Shown here in pieces: positions 2,870 to 54,843 of a stretch of DNA of 64,000 bases; positions within the stretch are counted from its first letter, which is position 1; the number at the start of each line of letters is the position of its first letter. The stretch comes from Gammaproteobacteria bacterium. GTDB taxonomy: Bacteria > Pseudomonadota > Gammaproteobacteria > Pseudomonadales > Porticoccaceae. The notes below the pieces were generated by a model that was not told the DNA's origin, searched no databases, and worked only from the letters and a program-made list of their open reading frames with translations. The translations under genes and the position numbers were made by a program. The stretch covers positions 82,465 to 146,464 of the forward strand of contig JADJET010000003.1 of NCBI GenBank assembly GCA_016708925.1, written 5' to 3'.

Positions 2870-2927
2870 CGTCACATTCCCATACTTTTCGTTTTTCGTT
2901 TTTCGCCCGGAAAATGCGCGGACGGCT

Positions 2928-4142: not shown

Positions 4143-4199
4143 GCCCCTGCCCTCGTTGCAATCGGTTGTAATGTGCGGCTACGGGTTCCGATGCCGCCC

Positions 4200-29817: not shown

Positions 29818-31619
29818 CTACTGCGGACGCAGGGCGATATGCAGATCCCGCAGCGCCTCGCCACCCACCGCACCCGGCGCGTCGGTGAGCAGGCACTGCG
29901 CCGACTGGGTCTTGGGAAAGGCGATGACATCGCGGATCGAGCCAGCGCCCAGCATCAGCATCACCAGTCGATCCAGACCGAACGCGATGCCGGCATGGGG
30001 CGGGCAGCCGTATTTGAGGGCATCCAGCAGAAAACCAAACTTCTCGCGCTGCTGGGCGGCGTCGATACCCAGGATGTCGAAGACGGCGGCCTGCAGCTCG
30101 GGACGGTGAATCCGCGCGGAACCGCCGCCCAGTTCGGTGCCGTTCAACACCATGTCGTAGGCGCGTGACAGCGCCGCGCCGGGATCGGCACGCAAGGCGT
30201 CGGGATCGCAGGAAGGCGCGGTAAACGGGTGATGAAGCGGAGTCCAGCCGCCGCGCCATCCCGTTCGAACATGGGAAAATCCACTACCCAGAGCGGTGCC
30301 CAGGCCCTGGTATACAAATTCAGATCCAGGCCCAGCTTGCAGCGCAGCGCCCCCAAGGATTCCGCCACCACTGTGGCCTTGTCGGCGCCGAAAAAGATCA
30401 GATCGCCGTTTTCCGCGCCGACGCGGTCGAGAATCGCGCGCCGCACGTCAATCGGCAGGAATTTCACGATGGGCGATTGCAGTCCCTCTTCCAGGTCGGC
30501 GCAATTGTTGACCTTGATGTAAGCCAGCCCGCGGGCGCCGTAACGCGCGACGAACGCCGTGTAATCGTCGATCTGCTTGCGGCTGAGCGTATTGCCGCCC
30601 GGCAGGCGCAGCGCGGTCACCCGTCCCGCCGGATCGGCGGCGGCCACGGCAAACACCTTTAATTCGACACCCGCCATCAGGTCCTTGATATCGACCAGTT
30701 CCAGCGGAATGCGCAGATCGGGCTTGTCGCTGCCAAAGCGCGCCATAGCGTCGGCGTAGGTCATGCGGGGAAATTCGCCGAGCTCGACGTCGAGCACTTC
30801 GGCAAACAGTCCCCGCACCATGGTCTCGACGAGCGCCATGAGATCGCCCTCGGCCAGGAAGGAGGTCTCGATGTCGATCTGGGTGAATTCAGGCTGACGG
30901 TCGGCGCGCAGATCCTCGTCGCGGAAACAGCGCGCGACCTGATAGTAGCGATCGAATCCGCTCACCATCAGCATTTGCTTGAACAACTGCGGCGATTGCG
31001 GCAGCGCAAAAAAGCGCCCCGGATGTGTGCGGCTGGGCACCAGATAATCGCGCGCACCCTCGGGCGTCGCCCGGGTCAGGATCGGCGTCTCGATGTCGAG
31101 AAAACCCTCGCGGTCGAGGAAGCGCCGCAACGCGCCGGTGACCCGGGCCCGCAGGCGCAGATTGCGCTGCATCTCGGGTCGGCGCAGATCCAGATAGCGA
31201 TGGTGCAGACGCACCTCTTCGCCCACCCGCGTGTGCTCGTCGAGCTGAAACGGTGGCGTCTCGGCGCTGTTGAGAATGTCGAGTGCGAGACCATAGACCT
31301 CGACCCGGCCCGTCGCCATGTCGGGATTCACGGTCTCGGGTGTCCGCGCCCGCACGCGCCCGGTCACGCGCAACACATATTCCCCGCGGACGCGATCCGC
31401 GGTATCGAAATGCACACCGCAGTCAGGGTCGAACACAACCTGGACGATACCGTCCCGATCGCGCAGATCGATGAAGATCACCCCACCGTGATCGCGGCGG
31501 CGATCCACCCAACCGCACAGCACCACTTCGCTGCCCGCCACGCTTTCACCGACCGCGCCGCAGTAGATCGAGCGTCCGATCTCCGCGTAGCCTGAGGTCA
31601 ACCGCCGATCATCGCTCAT
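29818..31619 (-). pseudogene. aspS: aspartate--tRNA ligase, interrupted by a -1 frameshift as assembled
   Basis: The N-terminal 460+ aa (ORF 30144-31619) end at ...[14 protein letters not shown]. The rest ([47 protein letters not shown]...) continues in another frame and joins ORF 29818-30195. The frames switch within gccgccgcgcc at 30247-30256. Confidence 0.9.
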
Positions 31620-31936
31620 GGGGTTGCTGCCGCAGGAGCAGTCGTTTTGGGGGCTGCGGCGCCGCTGTCGCCCGCAGGTTTGGCGCTGCCGGCACTATCC
31701 TCCTTTGCCGCCGGCTTGGTGTCGGCATCCGCCGTCAGATTGCGCTTTTTGTCGCCGGTCTTGAAATCGGTTTCATACCAGCCGCTGCCGCTCAACCGGA
31801 ACGCACTGGCAGTCAGCTTCTTTTTGAGGCTGGCATGACTGCACGCCGGACAGTCCACGAGCAGCGGGTCGGCGACCTTCTGGATCGCTTCGAGCTCGTG
31901 CCCACAGTCCTGGCAAACATATTCGTAGATCGGCAT
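31616..31936 (-). CDS. FmdB family zinc ribbon protein
   Basis: 106 aa. [16 protein letters not shown]...CPAC CxxC-CxxC ribbon. 4-nt overlap with the aspS start. Confidence 0.75.
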
Positions 31937-35010: not shown

Positions 35011-36764
35011 TTGCGCCTGGAACCGACGCCCACGCTCCACAGCCTCGCCTTTCGCGCCGCCGATTTCGCCACCCTGGCCGAAGCCCTGGACTACGCCGCC
35101 CTGGGCGCGACCGGGGCCAATTTCTATTCCGGCCAAGGCACGCTTCAGACACGGCTTTCATACCGTTCACTGCGCGCCGATGCCGTGGCGCTGGCCCGCA
35201 AGCTCCTCGCCCTGGGCCTGTCCCAAGGCGACCGCGTGGCGCTGGTTGCCGAAACCGATCCGCATTTCCTGCGTTTTTCTATGCCTGTCAGTACGCCGGA
35301 CTGGTTCCCGTCCCGCTGCCCGCCTCGGTCAAGCTCGGCGCGCATACGTCCTATGTCGCCCAGTTGCAACGCCTACTCGCGGGCAGCCACGCGAGCATCG
35401 CCGTGGCCTCCGAGGGCTATCTGCCGTTTCTGGAAGAAGCCAGCGCCGGTCTCGGCCTGCGCATGGTCGCGGATCCGGAGCGTTTTTATCGACTCCCGGC
35501 CGCTGAGCAGCAAGCGCTGCCCGCGCAGGATCCGGACAGCATTGCCTATATCCAGTACACCTCCGGCAGCACCCGCTTTCCACGGGGGGTAGTGATCCGG
35601 CAACACACGGCGATGGCCAATCTGGCTGGCATCATTCAGCACGGCGTCAAACTGATACCGGGGGACCGCTGCTTCTCGTGGCTGCCGTTCTATCACGACA
35701 TGGGGCTGGTGGGTTTCGTGCTGGTGCCCGTCGCCGCGCAGATCTCCGTCGACTACCTGGATACGCGCGACTTCGCCATGCGGCCACGGCAGTGGCTCAA
35801 TCTGATGACGCAAACCCGGGCGACCGTGTCCTTTGGGCCGCCCTTCGGCTACGACCTGTGCGCACGCCGGCTCGGCCCCGGCGAAGCGGAAAAGTACGAC
35901 TTGCGCCACTGGCGCGTGGCGGGCGTCGGCGCCGAGATGATCCGTCCCGAAACCCTGGATTATTTTGCGAAAACGTTGGCGCCGGCGGGATTCGACGCGC
36001 GCGCATTTCTGGCCTGCTACGGCATGGCCGAGTGCACACTCGGGATCAGCTTTTCACCGCTCGACTCGGGCCACAACACCGCGCTGGTGGACACCGACGA
36101 ACTCTACGAAAACAACCGCGTGGTGCTGCTCGACCCGGACAGCGCGACTGACGGCAGGGGACGGCGCTTCGTCGGCTGCGGGATTCCGCTGCCCGGCTAC
36201 GAAGTCGAGATCCGTAACGAGGATGGTGACGTACTGGGCGACCTCGAAAGCGGTGTCATCCATCTGCGCGGGCCCAGCGTCATGTCGGGCTACTTCGAAA
36301 TGCCCGAAGAAACCCGCGCCGTTCTGGACGAATGCGGCTGGTTGAACACCGGCGATATCGGTTATCTGGTCAACGGCGCCCTGACCATTACCGGCCGTCA
36401 GAAGGACCTCATCATCATTCGCGGCCGCAACATCTGGCCGCAGGATATCGAGCAACTGGCCGAAACCCAGCCTGAAGTCCGGCTCGATGGTGCGGTAGCG
36501 TTTGCCGCACCCGGAGCCGATGGCGACGAATGCGTGTTGATGGTGGAGTGTCGGGAAACCAAACCCGAGCGCCGCGCCGACCTCATCGCCCGACTCACGC
36601 GCCTGCTCCGGCAGGAACTAGCGCTTGAATGTCATATCGAGCTGGTGCCCAGAAGTTATCTGCCACGCACCTCGTCCGGCAAGTTGTCGCGCGCGCGGGC
36701 GCGCCTGATGTTCATCAACGAGTTGGCGATCGCGCCGGCTCTGGCCACGGCGGCATCGGCCTGA
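35011..36764 (+). pseudogene. fatty acyl-AMP ligase (FAAL-type AMP-dependent synthetase), -1 frameshift as assembled
   Basis: ORF 35011-35592 is homologous only up to ...VALVAETDPHFLRF. The sequence FYACQYAGLVPVPLPASVKLGAHTSYVAQLQRLLAGSH continues in the frame of ORF 35364-36764 (YIQYTSGSTRFPRGV, WLPFYHDMGL, SSGKLSR). The switch is at the T5 run 35274-35278. TTG start with GGAGG RBS. Confidence 0.8.
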
Positions 36765-37707
36765 GCGAACCCGCGGCGCCGCTCATTGCCATCACCGGCG
36801 CGACCGGCTTCATCGGCCGCAACCTCTGTTCCCGCCTGCGGGTGTCGGGGTTTCGGGTGCGCGCACTGGTGCGCTCCCCCGGCCAGGTGCCGTGGCTGGC
36901 GCGTGCCGGCATCGATATCCTTCCGGGTGATCTCGCCGCGCCGCCTGCGCTGCGGCAGTTGCTCGCCGGTAGTGCGGCCGTGATCCACTGCGCGGGCACT
37001 GTGCGCGGCCGCACCCCGGCCGATTTCGCGTCCGCCAATGTGCTGGGCTGCCAGCATCTGGTACAGGCCATCAAGGATTCGGACACTCCACCACGACTGT
37101 TGGCACTGTCGTCGCTGGCGGCGCGGGAACCACAGCTGTCGCACTACGCTGCCAGCAAATTTGCCGGCGAGCAGGTGGTGTCGGCGAGCGGCGATGCGGT
37201 CGCCTGGACCATCCTGCGGCCACCGGCCGTGTACCCGGCGACCGCGAACTGCTGCCGCTGTTTCGGCTGATGGCGCGCGGTATCGCGCCGCTGCCCGGCG
37301 GTCTCACGGACCGCGTCTCGATGCTCTACATCGACGATCTGGCAAGCGCCGTCATGTGCTGGCTGGCTACGGACTCGCCGCCACGACGGATTTTTACCCT
37401 CAGCGATCCCGCGGACGCGGGCTACAGTTGGGCGGATATCGTGCGCATCGCGGGCGTCGTGTGCGGGCGCCAGGTGCGACCCCTCCGGGTACCGTCCGTG
37501 GTGCTCGACGGGATCGCCGGAGTAAACTGGGCTGCCGCCGCGCTGTTGCGTTACGCGCCCATGCTGACGCCCAGCAAAGTACGGGAATTGCGCCATGCCG
37601 ACTGGACCTGCGACTGGCGCGAGCTGGGCGCCGCGCTTGACTGGCAACCGCGGGTCGATCTGGCCACCGGAATGCGCAACACTCTGCATGATGACGCTGG
37701 GCGTTAA
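36761..37707 (+). pseudogene. NAD-dependent epimerase/dehydratase-family SDR (possible reductase), -1 frameshift as assembled; start codon uncertain
   Basis: Rossmann motif ITGATGFIGRNL and catalytic YAASK. The first part (to ...ILRPPAVY) is in the frame of ORF 36629-37270, and the remainder (GDRELLPLFRLMARGIAPLPGG...) is in the frame of ORF 37270-37707. The switch is at 37234-37240 (tacccggcg). No ATG/GTG/TTG lies near the motif; the only candidate is a CTG overlapping the FAAL stop (CTGA). Confidence 0.65.
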
Positions 37708-37741
37708 CCAACAAACCACCCCTCCACGAGATGAGTGACGG

Positions 37742-38344
37742 ATGTCGTCGAAAAATCCCACTTCGATCCGCCTGTTCCGCAGCGACCTGCTGGAAGCCCT
37801 TACCCATGTGCATCCGCTCGTGCCGCTGCTGGTATGGACGCCCGTAATCAGCTGGTTGTTGTGGCGCGCGGTGACGATCCACGGGCTGTCGATCACCGAC
37901 CTGATTCCCGTGGCTGCGGCGGCGTTGCTGGTCTGGACTCTCACCGAATACGGCCTGCACCGCTTCGTGTTTCATTTCCCCGCCAAATCCCGGCTCGGCA
38001 AATGGCTGGTGTTTCTGTTTCACGGCGTCCATCACGAGTCCCCCCAGGACAAAACCCGGCTGGTGATGCCGCCGGCCGGTGCGATCCTGATCATGGCGAT
38101 GATCTGGCCGCTGTTCCAGTTGCTGATACCCGCTCCCTGGGCCGAGCCGTTCTGCGCGTTTTTCCTCATCGGCTATCTGGTGTACGACTACATTCATTAC
38201 GCCACCCATCATTTTCCGATGCGCCTTGAGCTGTTCCAGCAGATCAAGCGCCACCACATGAAACACCATTATTCCGGTCAGACCGGCCGCTACGGCGTCA
38301 GCTCGCCGCTCTGGGACATCGTGTTTCGCACCACCGGCCGTTAA
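37742..38344 (+). CDS. fatty acid hydroxylase superfamily protein, FA2H/Scs7-like (no cytochrome b5 domain)
   Basis: 200 aa membrane protein with four His boxes in FA2H-like order and context: HRFVFH, HGVHHESPQDKTRLVMPP, YDYIHYATHH, HHMKHHY...GVSSPLWDIVF. Confidence 0.75.
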   Translation: MSSKNPTSIRLFRSDLLEALTHVHPLVPLLVWTPVISWLLWRAVTIHGLSITDLIPVAAAALLVWTLTEYGLHRFVFHFPAKSRLGKWLVFLFHGVHHESPQDKTRLVMPPAGAILIMAMIWPLFQLLIPAPWAEPFCAFFLIGYLVYDYIHYATHHFPMRLELFQQIKRHHMKHHYSGQTGRYGVSSPLWDIVFRTTGR

Positions 38345-38382
38345 GCCGCCACTCATTGCCACGCCCCGGAACCCGCCTCGCC

Positions 38383-39333
38383 ATGCCCGAGTACTACCTG
38401 ATCCCCAAGCGCCTGATCAAACGCTGGCCGTCCCTGCGCCGGGCCGCGTGGGCGATGGAGGGCTACTTTTTCAAGGCGTTGATCGGCGGCGCTCGCCTGC
38501 TGCCCCCGGAACGCGCCGGGAAACTGCTGTCCTGGCTGTTCGGATTGGTCGGGCCCCACACCGCCAAGGCCGCCAAGGCCGACGCCAACCTGCGCTTTGT
38601 GCTGCCGCGACAAAGCGCGCGCGAACGCCGCGCCATGGTGAAGCAAATCTTTCGCAATCTCGGCCTGGCCACCGCCGAGCTGCTGTCCGCCAACCGCATC
38701 CTCGCCGAACGCGAGCGGCGCTTTGAATTTATCGCCGACCCCGTCACCACCGCGCTGCTGGCCGCGCACCAACCCATTCTCTTTGTCACCGCCCATATCG
38801 GCGCCTGGAATCTGGGTAACGCCATGGTTTCCCACTACGGATTTGAGGCCAGTTATCTTTACGCGAAGGAACCCAATCCCTACCTGCACGAACTGTTTTA
38901 CGGCATGCGCAAGATCCCGGGCATTCATCTTTACCCCAATACCGGAGGTCTGCTGCGCCTGCATCGGGAGCTGGCTGCCGGACGCAGCGTGGGACTGGTG
39001 GTGGACACCCGCCTGGATGAAGGCGAACTCATCCCCCTGTTCGGCGTTCCCGCGCCCACCAACACCCTCGCCGCCCGCCTCGCCCTGCGCACCCGGGTGC
39101 CGCTGATTCCGGTGCGGACCGAACGCTTGCCGAATCATCGCTATCGCATCACCGCCGGCCCGCCGATCAAGGTGCCTGAAGATATCCAGGAGGAGCTGCC
39201 GCGCGCGATCGCCATGACCGCCGAGATCAGCCGGCGCTTCGAAGCGTGGATCCGCACCGATCCCGCGCAGTGGGTCTGCCTCAAACGGCGCTGGCCCAAG
39301 GACGCAGCACCCGCGCTGGAGGCAAACCCCTAA
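38383..39333 (+). CDS. LpxL/HtrB/PatA-family lysophospholipid (lipid A-type) acyltransferase
   Basis: About 316 aa (an alternative TTG lies at 38356). Family layout: N-terminal anchor, catalytic HIGAWNL (HX4-type) block, VGLVVDTRLDEGELIPLFG and C-terminal PAQWVCLKRRW, as in Lip_A_acyltrans proteins. Confidence 0.75.
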   Translation: MPEYYLIPKRLIKRWPSLRRAAWAMEGYFFKALIGGARLLPPERAGKLLSWLFGLVGPHTAKAAKADANLRFVLPRQSARERRAMVKQIFRNLGLATAELLSANRILAERERRFEFIADPVTTALLAAHQPILFVTAHIGAWNLGNAMVSHYGFEASYLYAKEPNPYLHELFYGMRKIPGIHLYPNTGGLLRLHRELAAGRSVGLVVDTRLDEGELIPLFGVPAPTNTLAARLALRTRVPLIPVRTERLPNHRYRITAGPPIKVPEDIQEELPRAIAMTAEISRRFEAWIRTDPAQWVCLKRRWPKDAAPALEANP

Positions 39334-39435
39334 ACGGCCAGGGCCGAGCGCGAAACCGCCACCGTGCCAATGCTAAACTCGCACCCTCGACCACGCGCGT
39401 CCTGTGCATCACGCCATTCCGACCGGTTCCATTCC

Positions 39436-40379
39436 ATGCATGTGATCAACAAGCACGTCACCAAACGGCTGGTTCGGCTCGCCAGTCACGTCCTGCCGGA
39501 AGAGCGCGGACTCGCGCTCGAACGCTGGCGTCGCGGCCGCGAGGAGTACTGGAAATACCAACGTTGCGATCACGTCTTCGCCTCCTATGGCAAGAGCGGA
39601 CGCACTGGGTGCGCGCCATGCTGTCGCGCTATTTCCAGCTCGCCTGCAACATTCCGGAAAATATCCTGTTCGGCTTCGACAACTACCACAAGATAAATCC
39701 GGCAGTACCGAAAATATTTTTTACCCATGACAACTATTTGCGCACTTACACCGGCAATCTCGATTCCAAGAAAGATTTCTACGCCAAAAAAACCGTGCTG
39801 CTGGCGCGCCGCCCCCAGGATGTCGCGGTGTCGCAGTTCTTCCAGTGGAAGCATCGCATGCGCCCGTACAAAAAGGCACTGAACCTGTACCCGAGCCACG
39901 GCGCCGATATTTCCCTCTACGACTTCGTGATGGACGAACACCAGGGCCTGCCTCACATCATCGAATTCATGAATCTGTGGGAACGTGAATTGCCCAAAAT
40001 CCGCGTGTCCCTGTTGTTGCGCTACGAAGACCTGCGCGCCACGCCGCACCCGGAATTGAGCCGGCTGGTGGCGTTTCTGGGCATGCAGCCCGATGCCGCC
40101 GCCATCGCCGACGCGGTCGAGTTCGCCACGGTGGAAAATCTGCGCAAAAAGGAAGAGACCAATTATTTCTGGCGCAGCGGCAGCCGCCTCAAGGCCGCCG
40201 ATCCGAGTAACCCGGACTCCTACAAGGTACGTCGCGCCAAGGTCGGCGGCTACCGGGATTATTTCGACGATCGGCAACTCGCGGAAATCGACGGGCTGGT
40301 CGCGGCACGGCTCGCACCGAGCTTTGGTTACAGCGAAACGCCCGCGGTCACCGCGCCGCGAGATGCCGTTCGTGACTGA
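39436..40379 (+). pseudogene. sulfotransferase paralog 1, -1 frameshift as assembled
   Basis: The N-terminus MHVINKHV...YGKSGRT (frame of ORF 39364-39696) continues as WVRAMLSRYFQ... in the frame of ORF 39246-40379. The switch is at 39605-39606 (cgcac-tgggtg, versus ACC TGG in the paralogs). PAPS motifs GKSGRTW and RRPQDVAVS. Confidence 0.75.
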
Positions 40380-41304
40380 TTACCTTCGCATCGCGCGGCA
40401 CGCCGGCGTCGCTGTTTGTCCTTTGGCATCGCGCGAGCACCGCAAGGCATCCGAACGCTGGCTGCGCGGCTGGCTGGAATACCGCCGCCTGCAACCGGCG
40501 GACTGGGTGTTGATGTCCTGGGGCAAGAGCGGCCGGACCTGGCTGCGGGTGATGCTGTCGCGTTTTTACCAGGTACGCTACGGTCTACCGGCCTCCGAAT
40601 TGCTCGATTTCGACAATTTCCACCGGCGCAATCCGGCGGCGCCGCGCGTGTTCTTCACCCACAACAATTACCTGCGCGACTACACCGGCAACTGGCAATC
40701 GAAAGCACATTTCGCCGGCAAAAAAATCGTTTTGCAGGTACGCGACCCGCGCGATGTCGCGGTGTCGCAATTCTTTCAGTGGCAGTTCCGCATCCAGCCG
40801 CGCAAGAAATTTCTCAACGACTATCCGCCCCACGGCGCCGATATCGGCGTTTTCGATTTCGTCATGAATCCGCAAGTGGGCTTGCCGCGCATCATCGACT
40901 ACTTCAACGACTGGGCCGCATCGCGGGCCGAAGTCGCCGACCTGCTGCTGGTGCGCTACGAAGACATGCGCAGCGATCCGGGGCGGGAATTGCGACGCAT
41001 TCTGAGCTTCACCGGCACACCGGGGACCGAAGACGAGATCGCCGAAGCGGTCAATTTTGCCGCCTACGACAATATGAAAAAGCTGGAAGCGGACGGTTTC
41101 TTCCGCAACAGCGGCGCGCGCGTGAAAGCCGGCGATACCAATAATCCCGAGTCCTTCAAGGTGCGACGCGCCAAGGTCGGGGGTTACCGGGATTATTTCG
41201 ACGACGATCAATGTCGCACGCTCGACGCATTGATGACGAAGCTGGACCCCGTGTTCGGCTACGACGCCGCGCCTGCGCCAGCAACCGGCGTGGCGGCGGG
41301 GTAG
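40363..41304 (+). CDS. sulfotransferase paralog 2
   Basis: 313 aa from MPFVTDYLRIARH (ATG 40363), overlapping paralog 1 by 17 nt. 5'-PSB loop GKSGRTWLRVMLS, 3'-PB block VRDPRDVAVSQFF, and C-terminal NPESFKVRRAKVGGYRDYFDD. Confidence 0.8.
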   Translation: MPFVTDYLRIARHAGVAVCPLASREHRKASERWLRGWLEYRRLQPADWVLMSWGKSGRTWLRVMLSRFYQVRYGLPASELLDFDNFHRRNPAAPRVFFTHNNYLRDYTGNWQSKAHFAGKKIVLQVRDPRDVAVSQFFQWQFRIQPRKKFLNDYPPHGADIGVFDFVMNPQVGLPRIIDYFNDWAASRAEVADLLLVRYEDMRSDPGRELRRILSFTGTPGTEDEIAEAVNFAAYDNMKKLEADGFFRNSGARVKAGDTNNPESFKVRRAKVGGYRDYFDDDQCRTLDALMTKLDPVFGYDAAPAPATGVAAG

Positions 41305-42047
41305 CGCACGGTCTCCATCGCCGCGCGTTCGGGGGCCTGTCCGTTCCGTCGCCAACACAGGGCAACGCGATAACCCGGGATGTCCGCCACCCGCCGCCGC
41401 TGCCAACCGGCCACGATTGTCGCCGCGATGGCGCTGGATTCCGGATCGGAAAATCCCGCCAGGCCGTAGCCGAGCGCTTTGAAATACGCTTCCCGCGCGG
41501 TCCAGATATCGTAAAACGCTGCGCACTGCGCGGTACCCGACAAGCTACCGAGCGCCGCGCATTCGTCGGCGGAAAAAAAACGCCGCGCCAGCGCCGGCAA
41601 CCGATCCCTCGGCGCGACATGTTCCACGTCCACGCCAAGTTCACACTGCCAACCCAGCGCGCAGACCACCAGATCCGCGCTGTGGGACAGGTTGAATGCC
41701 AGCGGCAGCGCGGGCCAGACGAGCGCGGGCTTGCCGCGTCGGTCGCGCGCAAACCGCCAGTCCGCCAGCGGCAGCGGATAGCGCCGGGAGAGCGCCCCGC
41801 GCAACAGCAGCCGCGCCAGCACGGCCCGGTGCCGATCGGCGGGATCGGCGAAGCGCACGCAATGCGCTGCTTCAGCACTGGAGAGAAGTGCGCGGCTCGT
41901 CCGGGACTTCAGGACATCGGAACATGCGCTAGGTCGTGCCAGCCACAACTGGACCGCGCCGTCGGCAAAACTTCGATACGGCTGTTCCGGCAATCCGGGA
42001 AGATTCGGACAGGCAGCCGGCACAATATCAGCCGCAAGAAACCTCAA
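41259..42047 (-). CDS. Sfp-type 4'-phosphopantetheinyl transferase
   Basis: 262 aa. GKPAL, FNLSHS, GVDVE and WTAREAYFKALG motifs. TTG start overlaps the upstream stop (TTGA). The 3' end overlaps convergent sulfotransferase 2 by 46 nt. Confidence 0.75.
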   Translation of the reverse strand: MRFLAADIVPAACPNLPGLPEQPYRSFADGAVQLWLARPSACSDVLKSRTSRALLSSAEAAHCVRFADPADRHRAVLARLLLRGALSRRYPLPLADWRFARDRRGKPALVWPALPLAFNLSHSADLVVCALGWQCELGVDVEHVAPRDRLPALARRFFSADECAALGSLSGTAQCAAFYDIWTAREAYFKALGYGLAGFSDPESSAIAATIVAGWQRRRVADIPGYRVALCWRRNGQAPERAAMETVRYPAATPVAGAGAAS

Positions 42048-42760
42048 AAACGCTGCACCTGTTTGCCGACGATGCGATCGCGAATCCGCCAGTAGAGTGT
42101 GTCCGGATTCACCACCACGATGAACACGCGGCGCAGACGGCCTTCGGGACAGGTGATCGGCTGCACCGCGTGCCAGCAGTGGTCGGTGCGCTGGAAGAGC
42201 GTCGATTGATTGCCGATAAATGGCGCCTCCTGGATGGCGACGAATTCCTCCAGTGCCGGCGCCGAGTCGTAATTCAGGCGCCCGGCATCATCGAGGATCA
42301 AGGTGCCGCCGCCCCACTCCGGCAGCCAGTCGCCCTCGGGGTTGAAGTAGAAAAGCTGGGAGCCATATTCGCGCCTGGCATCGCAATGGGGCGAAACCGA
42401 ACACCCGGTCGGTGTGTAATGCCAGTGGAACCGGAAAGTAGGCCGTCCACAGCGAAACAGCCGCGCGATCTGTTCGCGGTAACCGGAGTTGCACAGCTCG
42501 TCGATAAAGGCGCGCCAGGGCGCCGGCACCGGGGTATCGGGCGTGAATTCGAGGGAGTAGCGGTCGTGAGGCGCCTGGCCCGCACGGCGCCGATAACCGA
42601 CTTTTTGTTCGAACAGATCGAGCCCGGGCATGTTCGCGAGCAGCGCGGCGTAACCCTCGGGCGTCACCAGATCCGCCATACCGAGCCAGGGAAAAGGTTT
42701 GCGCCGGGCGAAATCCGCGGCATCGACGGCCGCGAGTTTGTCGAGAGCGAGATAGCGCAT
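42044..42760 (-). CDS. 2OG-Fe(II) oxygenase-like protein
   Basis: 238 aa. HxD...H facial-triad candidates (SPHCDA ... HCWHAV) in the context YFNPEGDWLPEWGGGTLILDD ... R.VFIV, typical of prolyl-hydroxylase-like 2OG oxygenases. Confidence 0.55.
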   Translation of the reverse strand: MRYLALDKLAAVDAADFARRKPFPWLGMADLVTPEGYAALLANMPGLDLFEQKVGYRRRAGQAPHDRYSLEFTPDTPVPAPWRAFIDELCNSGYREQIARLFRCGRPTFRFHWHYTPTGCSVSPHCDARREYGSQLFYFNPEGDWLPEWGGGTLILDDAGRLNYDSAPALEEFVAIQEAPFIGNQSTLFQRTDHCWHAVQPITCPEGRLRRVFIVVVNPDTLYWRIRDRIVGKQVQRF

Positions 42761-42763
42761 GGT

Positions 42764-43741
42764 TCAGGCAGCCTCCAACCGGATTTTGTTCAGGACATCC
42801 AACGCATCGTGGCGCAAGTGATTGCGTGCCATCTCGGCGCGCAACAAGTCTTCGGTTACCGAACCGTTATCGAGACATTCCCGCACCAGCGTGAAAAACA
42901 GCCGCTCCTGGGCCGGGTCCGGGTGGCGGGCGTAGCGGCCGAGCAGCGCGTATTCGCCGAGTAGACGCGCGCGCACCCGGTTGAGCCCGGCGAGCAGGGG
43001 CTTGTCTTTCAGTTTGTCGGCGGGCGTGAAGTCGACCGGGAGCCCGGTTTTCCAGGGCTGGGTGCGGCGTTTGGTGTTGTGGAGCATTTTCGTCTGCGGC
43101 GTGAGGCGATCGAAATCGTTCCACTCGGGCTCCAGCCAGCCGATGTTCTCGGGTCGCTCGTGCGCCAGCACCATCCAGTCCTTGTAGTCGCGCGTGAAAC
43201 TGAACAGTTCACCGAACTCCCGCTCGCAATCCCAGTGCCGCAACCGCGCGCAGTCCAGCAGCATCACGCTGGTGGCCACCTGAAACCCTTTTTCGTCGCG
43301 CCCGGAGCGCCGCCGGCCCATCACCGCCGCGCCCTGCATGTCGCGGGTCAGCAGTTCGTGGATATCGCCGACCGCGAACACATCGGGATCGATCACCACG
43401 GCGCGGCCGCGATACCCGGCGAGTTGCGGCGCCAGGAAGCGCAGCGGCGTGAACGACTGCAGATCGTCCATGCGCCAGGTGCGGGTGGTGCCGCCACGCA
43501 GGAACTCCTGCCCCTCGCGTACGGCCAGGAAGGGATAATCCTTCACATGAATGAATTCCACCGTGAAAGTGTCGGCATGGCGGGAGTTGCGCCTCAGCGC
43601 ATGAGCCGCCACCAGGGCGCCGAGCCACTGCCGGTCATTGGTATGGATGAAGACCCGCAGTTCCTCTGGGGTCCGGGTGTCGCTCGGGGAATTTTCTGCC
43701 ACTGTCATCTGTGCTGTCTCGATTCGCGGGGATTCCGCCAT
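42764..43741 (-). CDS. DXD-motif nucleotide-sugar transferase-like protein (GT8-like), paralog A
   Basis: 325 aa. VFIHTNDRQWLGALVAAHAL, AVVIDPDVFAVGDI (DXD-like) and TSVMLLDCARLRHW resemble GT-A/GT8 blocks. Clear paralog of 46747-47640. Assignment is tentative. Confidence 0.4.
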   Translation of the reverse strand: MAESPRIETAQMTVAENSPSDTRTPEELRVFIHTNDRQWLGALVAAHALRRNSRHADTFTVEFIHVKDYPFLAVREGQEFLRGGTTRTWRMDDLQSFTPLRFLAPQLAGYRGRAVVIDPDVFAVGDIHELLTRDMQGAAVMGRRRSGRDEKGFQVATSVMLLDCARLRHWDCEREFGELFSFTRDYKDWMVLAHERPENIGWLEPEWNDFDRLTPQTKMLHNTKRRTQPWKTGLPVDFTPADKLKDKPLLAGLNRVRARLLGEYALLGRYARHPDPAQERLFFTLVRECLDNGSVTEDLLRAEMARNHLRHDALDVLNKIRLEAA

Positions 43742-43762
43742 CAGGGTGATGCTTAGGAGAAT

Positions 43763-44725
43763 TTACTTGAACAGGCCGCGTCGATGAAGACGCCAGAAGA
43801 AAGCCCAACCGTAAACCAGCGGGTGGCGGCGCACCTTGTCCGGAATCAATACCGGCTGCCCCGAGTGACGCTCGAGCTTCCAGGCCAGGTAATCCAGTCC
43901 GCCGGCAAAGGTGAACAGCGCCTTGGTGAGCCGCAGCAGGGAGCGCACCTTGCCGTGCACGCCGCGCAAGCGCCATGCGATCCGCGCACGCAACCGGGCA
44001 CCCGGCGGGATGGTTGCGGCATAGCATAAGCCCGTCGCATCCTCGACCAGGCGAAATCCATGGGGCAACCGCGCGGCAACCCGTTGGGTGAGGTCGCGGT
44101 AAAAAGGCTCGCCCCAGGCAGCCAGTTCCCGGGTCCGTCCGCCCTGCTCCGCGCGCAGCTCGGTGCCGTAGCTCAGTGCCAGGCTTTGCCGCCAGAGATC
44201 GCTGACCGGGCCTGCGGGCGGCACCAGCGGCAGCGCGCGACTCAACAGAGTGGTTGCGGCCAGTTCCTGGTCCGCCCTGAGCAGATCGCTGTAGTCGGGC
44301 GCACCGGACCGAGCATCGTGTTCCCGCGCATGGACCAGCGCCACCGGCTGGCAGAACCGCCCCCAGAAATAACTCTCGAAAGTGCGCGGCGACAGGCCGC
44401 GCTGAAAATCGGCGCGCGACACCACCGCGTATTTGCATCGCAAGGTGCGACCCTGCTCAGCCACTTCGGCGTAATAGACATTGGGCGGCAACAGCCAGTT
44501 GGCCAGGGTGCGTCCGGCACTCTGACCCGAGTGCCGGTAACCCGACACAATTACATAGAGGTCCACCAGCCCGTCGTGGAAATCGCCGCTGCGCAGGCAG
44601 GAACCGTACAGAATGATGGCGACCACGGCATCGCCGTGGCGTTCGCGCAGCACGGCGAGCAGCGGCGCCAGCGCCTGCTGACCAGCCGGCTCCACCTGCG
44701 TCACGTCCACCACCGGCGACGTCAC
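43763..44725 (-). CDS. Tam41/Mmp37-like nucleotidyltransferase (candidate phosphatidate cytidylyltransferase-type enzyme)
   Basis: 320 aa. ILYGSCLRSGD...DLYVIV (pol-beta NTase-like), then NVYYAEV...CKYAVVS...YFWGRFCQPV. This mirrors the Tam41 GVYFN...KYGVV...YLAGRLQKPV block as I remember it. GTG start overlaps the upstream stop (GTGA). Confidence 0.45.
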   Translation of the reverse strand: MTSPVVDVTQVEPAGQQALAPLLAVLRERHGDAVVAIILYGSCLRSGDFHDGLVDLYVIVSGYRHSGQSAGRTLANWLLPPNVYYAEVAEQGRTLRCKYAVVSRADFQRGLSPRTFESYFWGRFCQPVALVHAREHDARSGAPDYSDLLRADQELAATTLLSRALPLVPPAGPVSDLWRQSLALSYGTELRAEQGGRTRELAAWGEPFYRDLTQRVAARLPHGFRLVEDATGLCYAATIPPGARLRARIAWRLRGVHGKVRSLLRLTKALFTFAGGLDYLAWKLERHSGQPVLIPDKVRRHPLVYGWAFFWRLHRRGLFK

Positions 44726-45696
44726 AGGCGCAGAAACCGCAGCGGCCCGGCCGCCGTGATGACCACGGGACCCGCGGCGCGGGCGACCGCGACGATTTCG
44801 CCATCGAGATTGAAACTGCCGTCCATATCCAGAGCGATGCGCGCTGCCCGCTGGCTATGGTAGCCGGCGTCGGGGACCACGGCACGCCCGGGGCGTCCGC
44901 GCAGGATGCCGGGAAAACTTCTGAGCAAGCGGCGCGCACGACCCTCGATCAGACTCCACTTGAGCGGCCCGGCGCCCTTGCCCCAGAACGGTCGCAAGCC
45001 GAGGAACAGTCGGTCGAGAGTGCTCACCGCCAGAATCAACGCGTCGCATTCCAGCGCCTCGCCAACGTCCGAGCGCACCGCCACCGGTAGTGGCTGCCAG
45101 AACTCGGGGTCGCGGCGCACCAGTCCCCAGAGCGTGCGCACCATGCCCAGACCCAGGCTGAAGTCATCGCGCAGCCCCCGCGCGTGCAGTTCGCGATGAG
45201 CGTAGGCGGTGCCCTGCATGATGACGCCGGTGCCGAAAAACATGCCGTAGCGCGGCGGCTGCGCGCCCGGATCGACCCGCAAGACATGGCGCTCGACGAT
45301 GAGGCCTTCGGTCGCGCAGCCGGTCTCTGCCCAGGCCTGCAAGCGGCGCAGCGCCGTTTGCAGCGAGCCGTAAATCCCCACATCGCCCGCCGTCATGTTG
45401 GCGGTGCCGCCCGGCAGCAGCGCCAGCAGCGGCAAATCGGCTAATGAAAAATGCGCGAACAACTGGGCAAAAACCGCCGCCGCCGTGCCATCGCCGCCGT
45501 TGATCACCAGCAATCGGAGCGGCGCTCCGGCCAGCATCCCGAGTACCCCCGGGATGTCTTCCGCGGCGTCGGTGATGAAGTGGCGAAACCGCGGGTCCCC
45601 ATCCAGTGCCGCCGCCACCACGCCCAGGCGGTCCCGGTTGTGGCCGCTGTTGCGGTTGCTGATGACGGCGATCACCGGCTGCGGATTTCCGGTCAC
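44722..45696 (-). CDS. diacylglycerol kinase catalytic-domain lipid kinase (YegS/LCB5/ceramide-kinase-like)
   Basis: 324 aa. IAVISNRNSG, VINGGDGT, LPGGTANM and C-terminal NLDGE, the DAGK_cat signature. GTG start overlaps the upstream stop. Confidence 0.65.
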   Translation of the reverse strand: MTGNPQPVIAVISNRNSGHNRDRLGVVAAALDGDPRFRHFITDAAEDIPGVLGMLAGAPLRLLVINGGDGTAAAVFAQLFAHFSLADLPLLALLPGGTANMTAGDVGIYGSLQTALRRLQAWAETGCATEGLIVERHVLRVDPGAQPPRYGMFFGTGVIMQGTAYAHRELHARGLRDDFSLGLGMVRTLWGLVRRDPEFWQPLPVAVRSDVGEALECDALILAVSTLDRLFLGLRPFWGKGAGPLKWSLIEGRARRLLRSFPGILRGRPGRAVVPDAGYHSQRAARIALDMDGSFNLDGEIVAVARAAGPVVITAAGPLRFLRL

Positions 45697-46685
45697 TGGA
45701 CGGCAGTATTGCCGGAGGTGTTGCCGGGCATGTTGCCATAGCCGAATACGGGGTCCAGCCCGCCAGCGATCCGCGCATCGATGCGCGCGACTTCTTCATC
45801 GGTGCAGTAGTCACGATAGCCGCCGACCTTGGCGCGACGCACTTTGTAACTGTCCGGATTGTCGCGGTCCCGCGCCGCCAGCCGCCCACCGGTCAGGCGC
45901 AACGGCCCCAGATGCAGCCCACCCTGACTCTCGCGCGCCTTCATCTTGTCGTAAGAGGCGTAGGCCACGGCGTCGCCGACCACCTGTTCGCCCGCCGCGA
46001 CACCCATGAAATCCAGCAGCACCCGCAACTGGTTTTCGGGATCACGGCGCAGATCCTCGTAGCGCAGCACATGCAGGCGCTTGATGTGGGGAATCTCCGC
46101 CGCCCAGGTATTCATGAAGCTCAGTGCGTCGCCGAGACTGCCGCCATAATCGCTCATCAGGTAATCGAATACGCCGATGTCGGAACCGGCCGGTGGATAC
46201 TTGTTGATCTTTTTCTTGTCCGGCTTCATGCGGAATTTCCACTGGAAATAATTCGACACCGAGACATCCCGCGGGTCGCGCACCATCAGCACCACGGGCT
46301 TGTCGTAGAACGGCGCCTTCGAATCCGGCACTCCGGTGAAATCCTTGATGTAGTTGTCGTGGGTAAAAAATATTTTCGGAATCTTCGCATTCAGGTTATG
46401 AAAATTATCGAAACCGAGCACCAGGTTTTCCGGCAGGCGGTACATCAAGCGAAACACCTGGGACAGCATCACCCGCAGCCAGGTGCGCCCGCTCTTGCCG
46501 AACGACACCACCGCGATATCGCAAGCGCGCAGCGTCGCGTACTGTTCCGCGCCCCGCAGTTTGCGCTCCTCCACCAGGCGCGCGCCTTCGTCCAGGCGGC
46601 GCAGACGCCAGTGCAACAGACGTCGCGAACCCTTTTTGGCGAGGGTGCGGACCAGTTGCCTTGCGCTTTGAATCACAACACTCAT
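45693..46685 (-). CDS. sulfotransferase paralog 3
   Basis: 330 aa. FGKSGRTWLRVMLS, VRDPRDVSVSNYF and NPDSYKVRRAKVGGYRDYCTD, the same three blocks as paralogs 1 and 2. Confidence 0.8.
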   Translation of the reverse strand: MSVVIQSARQLVRTLAKKGSRRLLHWRLRRLDEGARLVEERKLRGAEQYATLRACDIAVVSFGKSGRTWLRVMLSQVFRLMYRLPENLVLGFDNFHNLNAKIPKIFFTHDNYIKDFTGVPDSKAPFYDKPVVLMVRDPRDVSVSNYFQWKFRMKPDKKKINKYPPAGSDIGVFDYLMSDYGGSLGDALSFMNTWAAEIPHIKRLHVLRYEDLRRDPENQLRVLLDFMGVAAGEQVVGDAVAYASYDKMKARESQGGLHLGPLRLTGGRLAARDRDNPDSYKVRRAKVGGYRDYCTDEEVARIDARIAGGLDPVFGYGNMPGNTSGNTAVQ

Positions 46686-46746
46686 GAGGATATCCGGTGA
46701 CGAAGAGCAGCGTTAACGGTCAGCGGTGGGAACCGCCTTACCCGGC

Positions 46747-47640
46747 TCAGGTGGCTGTCCGTGCCAGCACTTCAAAAGCATCCGGGCGCAAGTGGTGGCG
46801 GGCGATTTCGTCGCGCAGGCGGGCGGCATCGACGACATTGCGATCCATGCATTCGCGCAGCAGCCCGAAAAAAAACCGCTCCTGCGCGGGGTCCGGGTGC
46901 TGCCGGTAGCTGCCGGCGAAGCGATAGTCGCCAAACAGCGCCCGGCGGGCGCGCCGCAACCAGTGCCGCGGTGGAAACAGGCGAAAGCTGTCGGCGGGGC
47001 GGAAATCGACCTTGAGCCCCGTCTTCCAGGGCTGCGTCCAGCGCTTGGTGTTGTGGAGCATCTTGGTCTCGGCCGTGAGGTGGTCAAAGTCGTTCCAGAC
47101 ATCTTCCAGCGGGCCGATGCTGGCGCGGTCCTCCAGGCGCAGGGAAATCCAGTCCATGTAATCGCGTGCGCCGCTGAACAGCGCGGCGAAATCGCGCTCC
47201 AGGTTCCAGTGCCGCAGTTTTTCGCAGTCGAGCAGCATCACGCTCGACGCAAAGGCGCCGCGCCTGCCCTTGTTGCCGGACTTGGGGCGACACAGGATCG
47301 CCTTGCCGCCCATGTCACGCGACAGCAGATCCCAGACATCGCCGACCGCGAACACATCCGGATCGATCACCAGCGCGCGACCGCGATAGTTCATCAGCTC
47401 CGGCGGCGCAAAGCGCAACGGCGTGAACGACTGGAGATCGTCGTTGACCCAGGGACGCCATTCGCCGGAGCGGCGATACAACTGCCCTTCCCGGCTCTGC
47501 AGGCTTGGAAAATCAGCGGCATTCATCGGCCGAATGTCGAATTTTTCGTTGTGACGGGAGTTGCGGCGCAGCGCATATTCCGCCACCACGGCACCCAGCG
47601 ACTGCCTGTGATTGCTCTGGATGAAAACGCAATGGTCCAC
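46747..47640 (-). CDS. DXD-motif nucleotide-sugar transferase-like protein (GT8-like), paralog B; first gene of the minus-strand operon
   Basis: 297 aa, GTG start 47638-47640. Collinear with paralog A (ALVIDPDVFAVGDV, SSVMLLDCEKLRHW, MLHNTKRWTQPWKTGL, HPDPAQERFFF). Confidence 0.4.
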   Translation of the reverse strand: MDHCVFIQSNHRQSLGAVVAEYALRRNSRHNEKFDIRPMNAADFPSLQSREGQLYRRSGEWRPWVNDDLQSFTPLRFAPPELMNYRGRALVIDPDVFAVGDVWDLLSRDMGGKAILCRPKSGNKGRRGAFASSVMLLDCEKLRHWNLERDFAALFSGARDYMDWISLRLEDRASIGPLEDVWNDFDHLTAETKMLHNTKRWTQPWKTGLKVDFRPADSFRLFPPRHWLRRARRALFGDYRFAGSYRQHPDPAQERFFFGLLRECMDRNVVDAARLRDEIARHHLRPDAFEVLARTAT

Positions 47641-52195: not shown

Positions 52196-52909
52196 TCAGT
52201 CGAACCGCAATCCCAGCCGCTGACCAATCAGCTCGTAGGACTCCACCACCCGACCCAGGTCCTGACGGAATCGATCCTTGTCCAGTTTTTCCAGCGTATC
52301 GCGATCCCACACCCGGCAACCATCGGGAGTCACCTCGTCACCAAGCATCAACGCGCCGTTCATCAGCCCAAACTCCAGCTTGTAGTCCACCAGCACCATG
52401 CCGCCAGCGAGAAACAGGGGCGTAAGGATGTCGTTGATGCGGAAAGTAAGCTCTTTCATTCGCGCCACTTGCCAGGCTTCAGCCCAACCCAGGCTGTGGA
52501 TGTGGTACTCGTTGACCATGGGATCGCCGAGCGCATCGCTTTTGAGAAAGAATTCAAAGGTCGGCGGGGAGAGTACGCGCCCCTCGTCGATGCCATAGCG
52601 ACGGCACAGACTGCCCGCGGCAAGATTGCGGACCACGCATTCCAACGGCAGCATCGTCAGCCGTTTGACTAGCGTCTCGCGATCATCCAGCAGACGCACG
52701 AAGTGCGTTGGGATACCCGCCACCGCGAGCTTCTCCATGACGAAGGCATTGAACTTGTTATTCACCGACCCTTTGCGTTCCAGCTGCTCACGCTTCTTGC
52801 CGTCGAAGGCGGACGTATCGTCACGAAACAGCATCACCAGATGTTCCGGGTCGTCGGTCGCAAAGACCGATTTGGCCTTGCCGCGATAGAGCTCCTCGCG
52901 TTTTTCCAT
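52196..52909 (-). CDS. purC: phosphoribosylaminoimidazole-succinocarboxamide synthase
   Basis: 237 aa. [18 protein letters not shown] and [10 protein letters not shown] blocks of SAICAR synthetase. Confidence 0.95.
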
Positions 52910-52936
52910 AGTACTTGCCCCTCTCGGCTAGGTGGA

Positions 52937-53695
52937 TCAATACAGTTCCTGCCAGCCGAAACCTTCGTCCTGACTGGCATAAAGTACCTGATCAAGGTGC
53001 CCGGTCACCGGCGCCAACGCTTGCCGTACCAGCTCCGGGCTGTTGTTGTGCTGACTGATGTGCCCGACGACGAGCGTACGCAGCACGTCACCGCCAAGCC
53101 GCTGCAACAGGTCCGCCGTCTGGCCGTTGCTGAGATGACCCCAATCACCGCCCACCCGGCGTTTGAGCGCATCGGGATAGGACCCGGCGGCCAACAGCGC
53201 ACGATCATGATTGGCTTCGAGCAACAATCCATGGCAGTGCCGATAGCGCTCCACAACATGGGGCGTGACGCTACCCAGATCGGTCAGGATACCCAGCTTG
53301 TGATCCGCCGCCGCGAAGATGTACTGGACCGGCTCGCGTGCATCGTGGGGAACTGCCACAGCCTCCACCTCGAGACCGGCCAATTCCACCCGGGCGCCGC
53401 TGGCAATCACCCGAACCGGGTCATCGCGTCCGACGCCCACAGCACGCGCAGTGCCAGCCGTCATCAACACCGGGATGCCAAACCGCCGCGCCAGTGGCAA
53501 TACGCCGCTCACATGGTCGCCGTGCTCGTGGGTAACCAGGATTGCGGTCAGATCGGCGGGCGCACGCCCCAGCACGGCAAGTCTCCGGCAGGTCTCGCGT
53601 ACCGAAAACCCGCAATCGACCAACACACAGGCGTCACCAGTCTCCACGAGCGCAGCGTTGCCACGGCTCCCACTACCCAGGGAAGCGAACCGCAT
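52937..53695 (-). CDS. MBL-fold metallo-hydrolase (YycJ/PhnP-like)
   Basis: 252 aa. LGSGSRGNA, VLVDCG and THEHGDHVSG (HxHxDH) motifs. Confidence 0.8.
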   Translation of the reverse strand: MRFASLGSGSRGNAALVETGDACVLVDCGFSVRETCRRLAVLGRAPADLTAILVTHEHGDHVSGVLPLARRFGIPVLMTAGTARAVGVGRDDPVRVIASGARVELAGLEVEAVAVPHDAREPVQYIFAAADHKLGILTDLGSVTPHVVERYRHCHGLLLEANHDRALLAAGSYPDALKRRVGGDWGHLSNGQTADLLQRLGGDVLRTLVVGHISQHNNSPELVRQALAPVTGHLDQVLYASQDEGFGWQELY

Positions 53696-53701
53696 CGGCA
53701 G

Positions 53702-54739: not shown

Positions 54740-54843
54740 CAGCATCACCTCGTACGGGACACCTTTCCCGAAACATCCTGCCGGATTGGCATCATCTCCG
54801 CATCGGTCATGGTGCGCGCCACAACACTGAACAACATGATCCG

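Follow-up and report, generated by a model that had tools for sequence, protein, structure and literature searches.

What would a gammaproteobacterium make with three sulfotransferases, two glycosyltransferase-like proteins, a lipid kinase and an acyl-activating enzyme encoded side by side? The question is raised by a stretch of 64,000 nucleotides (the window; positions 82,465 to 146,464 of the forward strand of contig JADJET010000003.1, assembly GCA_016708925.1) from a member of the Porticoccaceae, in which 13 genes between positions 35011 and 47640, here called the island, form two convergent operons. With somewhat better than even confidence, we read the island as the greater part of a pathway for bacterial sphingolipid synthesis, coupled to a set of genes that tailor the head group, the predicted product being a sulfated, glycosylated, hydroxylated (phospho)sphingolipid, probably destined for the outer membrane. 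A ceramide anchor, which a first-pass annotation of the window had not considered, now appears the most likely one, because the island holds a pair of genes of the AasR/CerR type and the architecture of the ceramide head-group genes cpgB and cpgC, and because relatives of its gene families lie beside acpR and spt in other genomes. Part of the island is of a known kind, namely a bacterial sphingolipid locus; the sulfation and glycosyltransferase family 8 (GT8)-like tailoring set, and its joining with a CpgB/CpgC-type pair, are new as far as we have checked.

The genes, with family matches in brackets, are as follows.

35011..36764, plus strand: fatty acyl-AMP ligase (FAAL), AasR type, a specialised acyl-ACP (acyl carrier protein) synthetase (PF00501, 1e-57); frameshifted
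36761..37707, plus strand: NAD(P)-dependent short-chain dehydrogenase/reductase (SDR)/epimerase-family reductase, CerR type (PF01370, 9e-24); frameshifted
37742..38344, plus strand: membrane di-iron fatty acid/sphingolipid hydroxylase of the FA2H/Sur2 superfamily (PF04116, 1.4e-21)
38356..39333, plus strand: LpxL/PatA-family acyltransferase (PF03279, 7e-37)
39436..40379, plus strand: sulfotransferase 1 (ST1), of the type dependent on 3'-phosphoadenosine 5'-phosphosulfate (PAPS) (PF00685); frameshifted at 39605
40363..41304, plus strand: sulfotransferase 2 (ST2), PAPS type (PF00685, 1.7e-23)
41259..42047, minus strand: Sfp/HetI-type 4'-phosphopantetheinyl transferase (PPTase) (PF01648 and PF22624)
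42044..42760, minus strand: probable Fe(II)/2-oxoglutarate (2OG) oxygenase (PF13640, 2OG-FeII_Oxy_3, 1.8e-4, under the gathering score)
42764..43741, minus strand: GT8-fold glycosyltransferase-like protein A (structure prediction and Foldseek; no Pfam match)
43763..44725, minus strand: Tam41/Mmp37-fold nucleotidyltransferase, CpgC type (structure prediction and Foldseek; no Pfam match)
44722..45696, minus strand: DAGK_cat-fold lipid kinase, CpgB (ceramide kinase) type (PF00781, 3.6e-10)
45693..46685, minus strand: sulfotransferase 3 (ST3), PAPS type (PF00685, 9e-20)
46747..47640, minus strand: GT8-fold glycosyltransferase-like protein B (57% identical to its paralogue A)

Open reading frame (ORF) listing and translation place the genes on the strands and essentially at the coordinates first annotated, and in the same order: FAAL, SDR, hydroxylase, LpxL-type acyltransferase, ST1 and ST2 on the plus strand and, in the direction of transcription, GT-like B, ST3, kinase, Tam41-like, GT-like A, 2OG-like and PPTase on the minus strand. 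Pfam and NCBIfam searches, together with predicted structures compared by Foldseek, likewise bore out nearly all of the family assignments, and the evidence agrees with the broad notion of an anionic membrane lipid that is sulfated, hydroxylated and glycosylated. The packing is tight, with 4-nucleotide overlaps at 44722-25 (the kinase and Tam41-like genes), 45693-96 and 42044-47, one of 17 nucleotides at 40363-79 and a convergent one of 46 nucleotides at 41259-41304; a further overlap given for 36761-64 is uncertain, the codon at 36761 being CTG and the sole canonical in-frame start of the SDR gene upstream being ATG at 36629. The sulfotransferase genes had also been described as low in GC. 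The dip is real and modest (0.589-0.613, versus 0.646 for proS, 0.629 for rsmJ and 0.632 for the window), and since ST2 and ST3 keep a GC content at third codon positions (GC3) of 0.77, we attribute it to amino-acid composition and see no sign of foreign origin. Rfam and promoter/terminator scans added nothing.

Ties to characterised ceramide loci

Bacterial sphingolipids were long thought rare, and their biosynthetic genes have been defined only from about 2019; the head groups known so far are sugars, phosphoglycerol, phosphoglycerate and phosphoethanolamine. In the sphingolipid region of Caulobacter, the acyl-ACP synthetase AasR adjoins the epimerase-family reductase CerR, in the company of AcpR, Spt, bCerS and Lpt paralogues. 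AasR acylates AcpR for use by Spt, and the corresponding genes of Escherichia coli BL21(DE3) have been named aasR, epi, acpR and spt (PMC9386255). The island has both the AasR-type synthetase and its adjoining CerR-type reductase, the role of the reductase being predicted from sequence. The FAAL is 48% identical over its full length to the AasR homologue of E. coli BL21 (BLAST, E 2e-172) and scores 763 bits against NCBIfam model NF006624, for which the cut-off is 600; the SDR is 40% identical, also over its full length, to the BL21 epimerase encoded directly after AasR. The BL21 region runs yghO, FAAL, epimerase, ACP, spt, lptG, lptF, and the order FAAL-SDR with a 4-nucleotide overlap is common to it and the window. 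Set against the whole yghO-aasR-epi-acpR-spt-lptG2F2 cluster of E. coli BL21(DE3)/B, the window is without acpR, spt and yghO, whereas the E. coli cluster is without any sulfotransferase, GT8-like, kinase/Tam41, hydroxylase or LpxL-type gene. Given this pair and the architecture of the kinase and Tam41-like genes described next, the earlier view that this gene set is unlike any characterised pathway cannot be maintained.

In Caulobacter, CC_1160 (CpgB) is an assayed ceramide kinase of the DAGK type, and the adjacent CC_1161 (CpgC) bears a Tam41 domain; both are needed for making ceramide phosphoglycerate. The island pair matches CpgB/CpgC in domains, folds and adjacency, the likeness being one of domain type and adjacency. 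For the Tam41-like protein there was no Pfam or NCBIfam match, and a sequence search of the PDB was also empty. PDB searches with GT-like A were likewise empty, so that structure prediction was needed for the GT-like and Tam41-like proteins. An AlphaFold2 (AF2) model of the Tam41-like protein, built on an alignment of homologues, has a mean confidence (pLDDT) of 88.5, and its top Foldseek matches are the Tam41 CDP-diacylglycerol synthases 6ig4 and 7ecd (E 4.5e-10, TM-score 0.5-0.59). The protein has 1708 homologues, many of which, at about 50% identity, carry PF09139. Among the loci from other genomes with which the island was compared (numbered L002 to L100), the kinase/Tam41 pair is kept in L010, L012, L013, L014, L017, L018 and L020, and in L079 and L097 it adjoins spt.

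The wider Caulobacter crescentus locus, CC_1152-CC_1168 (AasR, CerR, AcpR, Spt, bCerS, CpgA-D and LptC2/F2/G2), resembles the island in having an adjacent acyl-ACP synthetase and SDR reductase and a DAGK-type ceramide kinase next to a Tam41-domain protein. It makes, in the cytoplasm, an anionic sphingolipid of the outer membrane, and the product proposed for the island is alike. In contrast to Caulobacter, the island is without CpgA, CpgD, spt, acpR and bCerS; no Pfam match to CpgA (a CDP-alcohol transferase, PF01066) or CpgD (a cytidylyltransferase) was found among the 13 proteins. It has beyond Caulobacter the three sulfotransferases, two GT8-fold proteins, the 2OG oxygenase, the FA2H-type hydroxylase, the LpxL-type acyltransferase and a PPTase of its own, and the negative charge would be supplied by sulfate, not by phosphoglycerate. 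Related gammaproteobacterial loci also have Metallophos and NTP_transf_3 genes, like CC_1158 and CpgD, plus Lpt paralogues; the NTP_transf_3 and Metallophos genes were found only in loci of the type seen in Thiogranum.

The connection with ceramide synthesis is extended by the gene neighbourhoods of other genomes. Nearly every island family has relatives, at roughly 29-67% identity, adjoining acpR-spt in other Gammaproteobacteria. Metagenomes were scanned with the Spt of L019, which is 59% identical to BL21 Spt and scores 614 bits against the NCBI Spt equivalog model (cut-off 500), as anchor. This yielded 80 loci; counts were taken over the 31 of at least 10 kb. AcpR is encoded in 29 of these, an LptF paralogue in 19, YghO in 15, FAAL in 12 and SDR in 11. 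A sulfotransferase 58-65% identical to ST2 or ST3 is present in seven, a GT8-like gene 59-64% identical to GT-like B in five, the hydroxylase with an LpxL-type gene in five, and the DAGK and Tam41 pair and a PPTase in two each; altogether 12 of the 31 hold a sulfotransferase, GT8-like, Tam41 or DAGK homologue. Two Tara Oceans scaffolds, L075 and L084, combine within 21 kb ST3-like, ST2-like and third sulfotransferase genes with those for LptF2, LptG2, AcpR, Spt, YghO, FAAL, SDR, LpxL, hydroxylase and LpxL. In L019 and L021, AcpR-Spt shares a locus with FAAL (60-61%), SDR (50%), an LpxL-type protein, the hydroxylase (64-65%) and a second LpxL-type protein. Smaller combinations are ST2-like, two GT8-like genes, LptF2, LptG2, AcpR and Spt in L041; AcpR, Spt, a GT8-like gene and ST2-like in L061; and Spt, YghO, Tam41 and DAGK in L079 and L097. 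Loci of the Thiogranum type (L018, L020) encode YghO, FAAL, SDR, NTP_transf_3, Metallophos, DAGK and Tam41. YghO-type homologues (46-54% identity) occur in related loci including L012, L018 and L020, and the 381-residue product of the gene adjoining the Thiogranum FAAL is 51% identical to YghO by BLAST. One side observation concerns L019:4489-5841, where an EPSP-synthase-family (enolpyruvyl transferase) gene directly follows spt, with an ORF of similar length in the same place in L084:11200-12456; there may be a connection with the head groups of Caulobacter that derive from glycerate or pyruvate.

The tailoring genes

All three sulfotransferases belong to the PAPS-dependent family, as first annotated: they match PF00685 with 55-84 bits, against a gathering cut-off of 22, and share the motifs GKSGRTW (the 5'-phosphosulfate-binding loop), FFTH(D/N)NY and R(D/R)P(R/Q)DV (of the RDPRDV type), which in ST1 are complete only once a 1-nucleotide deletion is repaired (see below). 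The best PDB matches of ST3 are cytosolic sulfotransferases and StaL. The three are kept as separate orthologues in L010. Relatives of ST2 (59-65% identity) adjoin acpR-spt in L041, L061, L064, L073, L075, L076 and L084, and relatives of ST3 (58-64%) occur in the spt loci L064, L073, L075, L076 and L084.

The GT-like proteins A and B have no Pfam or NCBIfam match, PF01501 included. An AF2 model of A (pLDDT 81.8, again built on a homologue alignment) finds as its top Foldseek matches XXYLT1, an Anaerococcus GT8 protein, GlyE, LgtC, LARGE1 and glycogenin (E down to 3e-9, TM-score 0.4-0.57), and the alignment has the invariant motifs DPD and HNTKR.TQPWK. A belongs to a highly conserved and very large family of hypothetical proteins, which comprises more than 5600 clusters at about 70% identity; a 50%-clustered library contains 1022 of its representatives. 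Relatives of B, at 59-64% identity, adjoin acpR-spt in L029, L039, L041, L049 and L061.

The 2OG-like gene always follows GT-like A in the contexts of its relatives, and its product, which retains an HxD...H triad and in which PHCD (an HxD motif), a distal WH and R..FIVV are conserved down to 42% identity, is probably a hydroxylating enzyme. The 2OG gene behaves as one sub-module with ST1 and GT-like A. In the cultured Mangrovimicrobium sediminis, only this trio is present, beside a PLD-family gene (L009:9055-11625) and without the other island genes; possibly it serves as a minimal module for a sulfated sugar, with some other acceptor. In L017:15137-16015, GT-like A has been cut to a 77-residue fragment and the adjoining 2OG-like gene is broken (170 residues, then a shifted tail), while the other 11 genes are intact. 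That both are degraded there points to two proteins that act jointly and can be done without.

Relatives of the hydroxylase (59-65% identity) occur in the spt loci L019, L021, L075, L077, L081 and L084, with an LpxL-type gene adjacent in all but L081, and LpxL-type homologues in spt loci are 39-46% identical to that of the island. The NCBIfam models nearest to the LpxL-type protein are lipid A lauroyl acyltransferases, yet against all NCBIfam lipid A acyltransferase models it falls under the cut-off (best score 142, versus 273). PPTase genes follow spt in L044, L051 and L053-L055 and lie within the clusters of L010, L013 and L014.

A recurring set consisting of DAGK/Tam41, between one and three sulfotransferases, GT8-like paralogues numbering two or three, a PPTase, a 2OG-like protein and Elm1-like proteins is found in Mangrovimicrobium, Thiogranum, Pseudohaliea and several metagenomic genomes; the cultured Thiogranum longum and Pseudohaliea rubra have the kinase/Tam41 pair with sulfotransferases and GT8-like genes. 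The set often adjoins Wzy_C, GT2, GT4, LptF/G and an MsbA-like transporter, and because of this a sulfated lipopolysaccharide (LPS) core was first suspected. Mito_fiss_Elm1 (DUF1022) and Wzy_C (O-antigen-ligase-like) genes recur beside kinase/Tam41 and sulfotransferase genes in L012, L013, L014, L018, L019 and L020, where they could serve in lipid glycosylation or in the ligation of a polymer to lipid.

Integrity of the island and the genes it lacks

Three island genes are broken in this sequence by 1-nucleotide deletions that the first-pass annotation had not seen: FAAL at a T-run (35274-35278), SDR at a C-run (37234-37236) and ST1 at 39605, where one C is absent and six aligned relatives have CC. 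Unrepaired, ST1 looks N-terminally truncated. Six-frame translation places the start of the repaired gene at ATG 39436, not 39246, and shows that its N-terminus bears the phosphosulfate-binding loop as YGKSGRTW. A 270-nucleotide stretch before ST1 that had been considered as a hidden ACP gene proved to be this true N-terminus in another frame. The essential gene aspS (30144-31936, minus strand) is likewise split by a frameshift, near 30245, with its C-terminal part of about 115 residues, including motif 3, in the other frame.

The whole cluster lies beside proS in the same order in seven related metagenome-assembled genomes (MAGs), with FAAL, SDR and ST1 intact, apart from one MAG with a separate SDR break of its own. 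These relatives are uncultured Gammaproteobacteria, some labelled Porticoccaceae and one from groundwater, and their proteins are 69-98% identical to those of the island (69-84% for the PPTase, 82-98% for the others, 96-98% for ST1). The exceptional break (L004:15201-16137, a MAG of the MFD/Microflora Danica series) is at residue 205/206, a different site from that in the window. A more distant locus, L017 from a JGI metagenome, has the same island beside proS, syntenic at 42-79% protein identity. Because the relatives are intact and the essential aspS is broken too, the breaks in the island look like assembly or sequencing indels and not decay. Pseudogenisation was rejected on the same grounds, together with the fact that every break is a 1-nucleotide deletion. 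Those in aspS and the three island genes point to an error-prone assembly, possibly one of long reads. The exact ST3 protein was found elsewhere only on a short contig of a wastewater metagenome.

Several core genes of ceramide synthesis are missing from the sequence at hand. No match to Spt was found in the window, either by Pfam searches of the other large ORFs or by tblastn with E. coli Spt, nor in L002-L018; in L019 and L021-L100 the gene does occur, next to orthologous modules. A motif scan and tblastn found no AcpR in the window, and tblastn no YghO. Candidates for the missing functions were rejected in turn. An aminotransferase in L010 is 32% identical to Spt and adjoins a threonine-dehydrogenase-like alcohol dehydrogenase gene, and is probably Kbl. 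A replacement of the YghO-type ceramide synthase by the LpxL-type protein, which would make the two mutually exclusive, is refuted by L075, L077 and L084, which carry both. An lptG gene that runs off the end of the window (63124-64000, minus strand) was considered as a sphingolipid-specific paralogue with spt just beyond; this was discarded because its identity to the spt-linked LptG2 paralogues is just 25-30%, which makes a housekeeping copy probable, and because the genes do not stand in the expected order. Two other features of the window stand apart from these questions: four tandem paralogues of CoA-transferase family III (PF02515) on the minus strand between 217 and 5426 (at about 217-1458, 1655-3100, 2931-4178 and 4200-5426), and two adjacent plus-strand ORFs of 430 and 411 residues (52703-53995 and 54089-55324) with coding-like GC3 and no Pfam match.

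The proposed pathway, its rivals and its meaning

The scheme that follows is drawn from homology and gene neighbourhood, not from chemistry. The Sfp-type PPTase would activate a dedicated ACP (AcpR), onto which the AasR-type FAAL would load a fatty acid. Spt and a ceramide synthase, both necessarily encoded outside the window, would then make an oxo-ceramide, to be reduced by the CerR-type SDR. The hydroxylase would act on the acyl chain or the long-chain base, and the LpxL-type acyltransferase would probably esterify a hydroxyl, giving an acyloxyacyl group or an ester on a sugar; that this hydroxyl may be the one made by the hydroxylase, or one on a sugar, is suggested by the adjacency of the two genes in five of the six spt loci that have the hydroxylase. 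The CpgB-type kinase would phosphorylate the ceramide at C1 and the CpgC-type Tam41-fold enzyme would activate or extend the phosphate. Hexoses would be added by the two GT8-fold enzymes and a further hydroxyl by the 2OG oxygenase, after which the three cytoplasmic PAPS-dependent sulfotransferases would sulfate the head group, the hydroxyls or both. Finally, the anionic lipid would be flipped and transported to the outer membrane, a task that in related genomes would fall to the Lpt paralogues encoded beside spt.

A eukaryotic precedent for such an order of events is sulfatide (3-O-sulfogalactosylceramide), formed by CGT and then by the PAPS-dependent sulfotransferase CST/Gal3ST1. The proposed pathway shares with it the sequence of ceramide, glycosylation and PAPS-dependent sulfation, and also 2-hydroxylation of the FA2H type. 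It differs in that the enzymes are unrelated (cytosolic SULT type, PF00685, versus the Gal3ST family), in that sulfation would take place in the cytoplasm and not in the Golgi lumen, and in having three sulfotransferases and a phosphate-activation step. Sulfolipid-1 of Mycobacterium tuberculosis depends on Stf0, Pks2, PapA1/2, FadD23 and MmpL8. It is like the island in that a FAAL serves a sulfur-containing envelope lipid, but no Stf0-type sulfotransferase, Pks2 or other polyketide synthase, PapA or MmpL8/MmpL is among the Pfam and NCBIfam matches of the island. The sulfonolipids (capnine) of Bacteroidetes are ceramide analogues in which a C-S sulfonate is derived from cysteate by a pyridoxal phosphate-dependent condensing enzyme, and are not PAPS-derived sulfate esters. 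Literature searches found no bacterial biosynthetic pathway or genes for a sulfated glycolipid or sphingolipid.

Several points weigh against the sphingolipid assignment. The 64-kb window contains neither spt nor acpR nor a gene for a YghO-type ceramide synthase, and the 20-kb loci of its nearest relatives (L002-L008, L017) contain none of them either; all three are assumed to lie elsewhere in this genome. The apparent link of the kinase and Tam41-like protein to CpgB and CpgC is one of domain type and adjacency, and CpgB phosphorylates diacylglycerol in vitro as well. The island encodes no exporter, and certain genomes have these genes in the midst of LPS-type ones (Wzy_C/WaaL-like, GT9, GT4, GT2, LptFG and an MsbA-like ABC transporter).

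The last two observations lead to the alternative that survives best, which the first-pass annotation had also raised and which now stands as a weaker rival. Here the island decorates LPS: the GT8-fold enzymes would extend the core in the manner of WaaI/J/O/R or LgtC, a secondary acyl chain from FAAL and an ACP would be attached by the LpxL-type protein and hydroxylated by the hydroxylase, and the core or lipid A would be sulfated on the cytoplasmic face before being flipped by MsbA. The GT8 fold, with LgtC among the top structural matches, fits such a role, as do the PF03279 match with lipid A lauroyl acyltransferases as its nearest NCBIfam models, the LPS-type neighbours (WaaL-like Wzy_C, GT9, GT4, GT2, LptF/G, MsbA-like) and the lack of a dedicated exporter. 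We nevertheless consider it unlikely. The LpxL-type protein scores below every relevant cut-off and does not qualify as an LpxL/LpxM equivalog; the Lpt paralogues also characterise the Caulobacter and E. coli BL21 sphingolipid loci; and the FAAL and SDR are close homologues of an AasR/CerR-type pair that is physically linked to acpR-spt in many loci, just as the kinase/Tam41 pair matches a ceramide head-group pathway. Moreover, the island has no Kdo, heptose, waa, kdt or GT9 gene, and it is flanked by proS and an antiporter gene, not placed within a waa region.

Slightly less probable again is a glycerolipid anchor, essentially the first suggestion made for the island, in which the DAGK-fold kinase would make phosphatidic acid from diacylglycerol and the Tam41-fold enzyme CDP-diacylglycerol, feeding a sulfated glyco- or phosphoglycolipid. 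The top structural match, Tam41, is indeed a CDP-diacylglycerol synthase, CpgB phosphorylates diacylglycerol in vitro about as well as ceramide, and the window lacks spt. Against this, deletion of cpgB in Caulobacter leaves phosphatidic acid levels unchanged, the island encodes no CDP-alcohol phosphatidyltransferase, and a glycerolipid would leave unexplained the AasR/CerR-type pair, the PPTase and the repeated linkage of all the modules to acpR-spt-yghO. Least probable of all is that two unrelated operons have become neighbours, the plus strand carrying a module for ceramide or an acyl lipid and the minus strand one for a sulfated glycan or small molecule with a non-lipid acceptor, some of the genes decaying: the solitary trio of M. 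sediminis, the degraded GT-like A and 2OG genes of L017 and the three frameshifts could be read in this way, but both operons hold sulfotransferases, the lipid-type kinase/Tam41 pair belongs to the minus-strand operon, the two modules co-occur in L002-L008, L017 and partly L012 and each is found beside spt, and the frameshifts are best read as sequence errors.

If the sphingolipid assignment is right, sulfated glycans would join the list of bacterial sphingolipid head groups, and candidate genes for them can be named: three conserved sulfotransferase orthogroups, a GT8-like family without a Pfam model and a coupled 2OG oxygenase. Sulfate-bearing 1-deoxyceramides have been detected in Black Sea lipidomes without assigned biosynthetic genes, and the island would offer a genetic origin for environmental sulfated ceramides of unknown producers, those of marine lipidomes included. 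The existence of cultured carriers, Thiogranum longum, Pseudohaliea rubra and Mangrovimicrobium sediminis, makes the idea directly testable. Falling a little short of an even chance, in our judgement, is the broader proposal that many environmental Gammaproteobacteria make a new class of outer-membrane lipid, a multiply sulfated, glycosylated, hydroxylated and possibly tri-acylated (phospho)sphingolipid, which would be a bacterial counterpart of sulfatide, built with a trio of cytoplasmic PAPS sulfotransferases and a new GT8-like family, exported by Lpt paralogues and using sulfate in place of phosphate as surface charge. A sulfate-based surface charge in some Gram-negative bacteria, as this suggests, would bear on their phosphorus economy, on resistance to cationic peptides and on recognition by phages and hosts.

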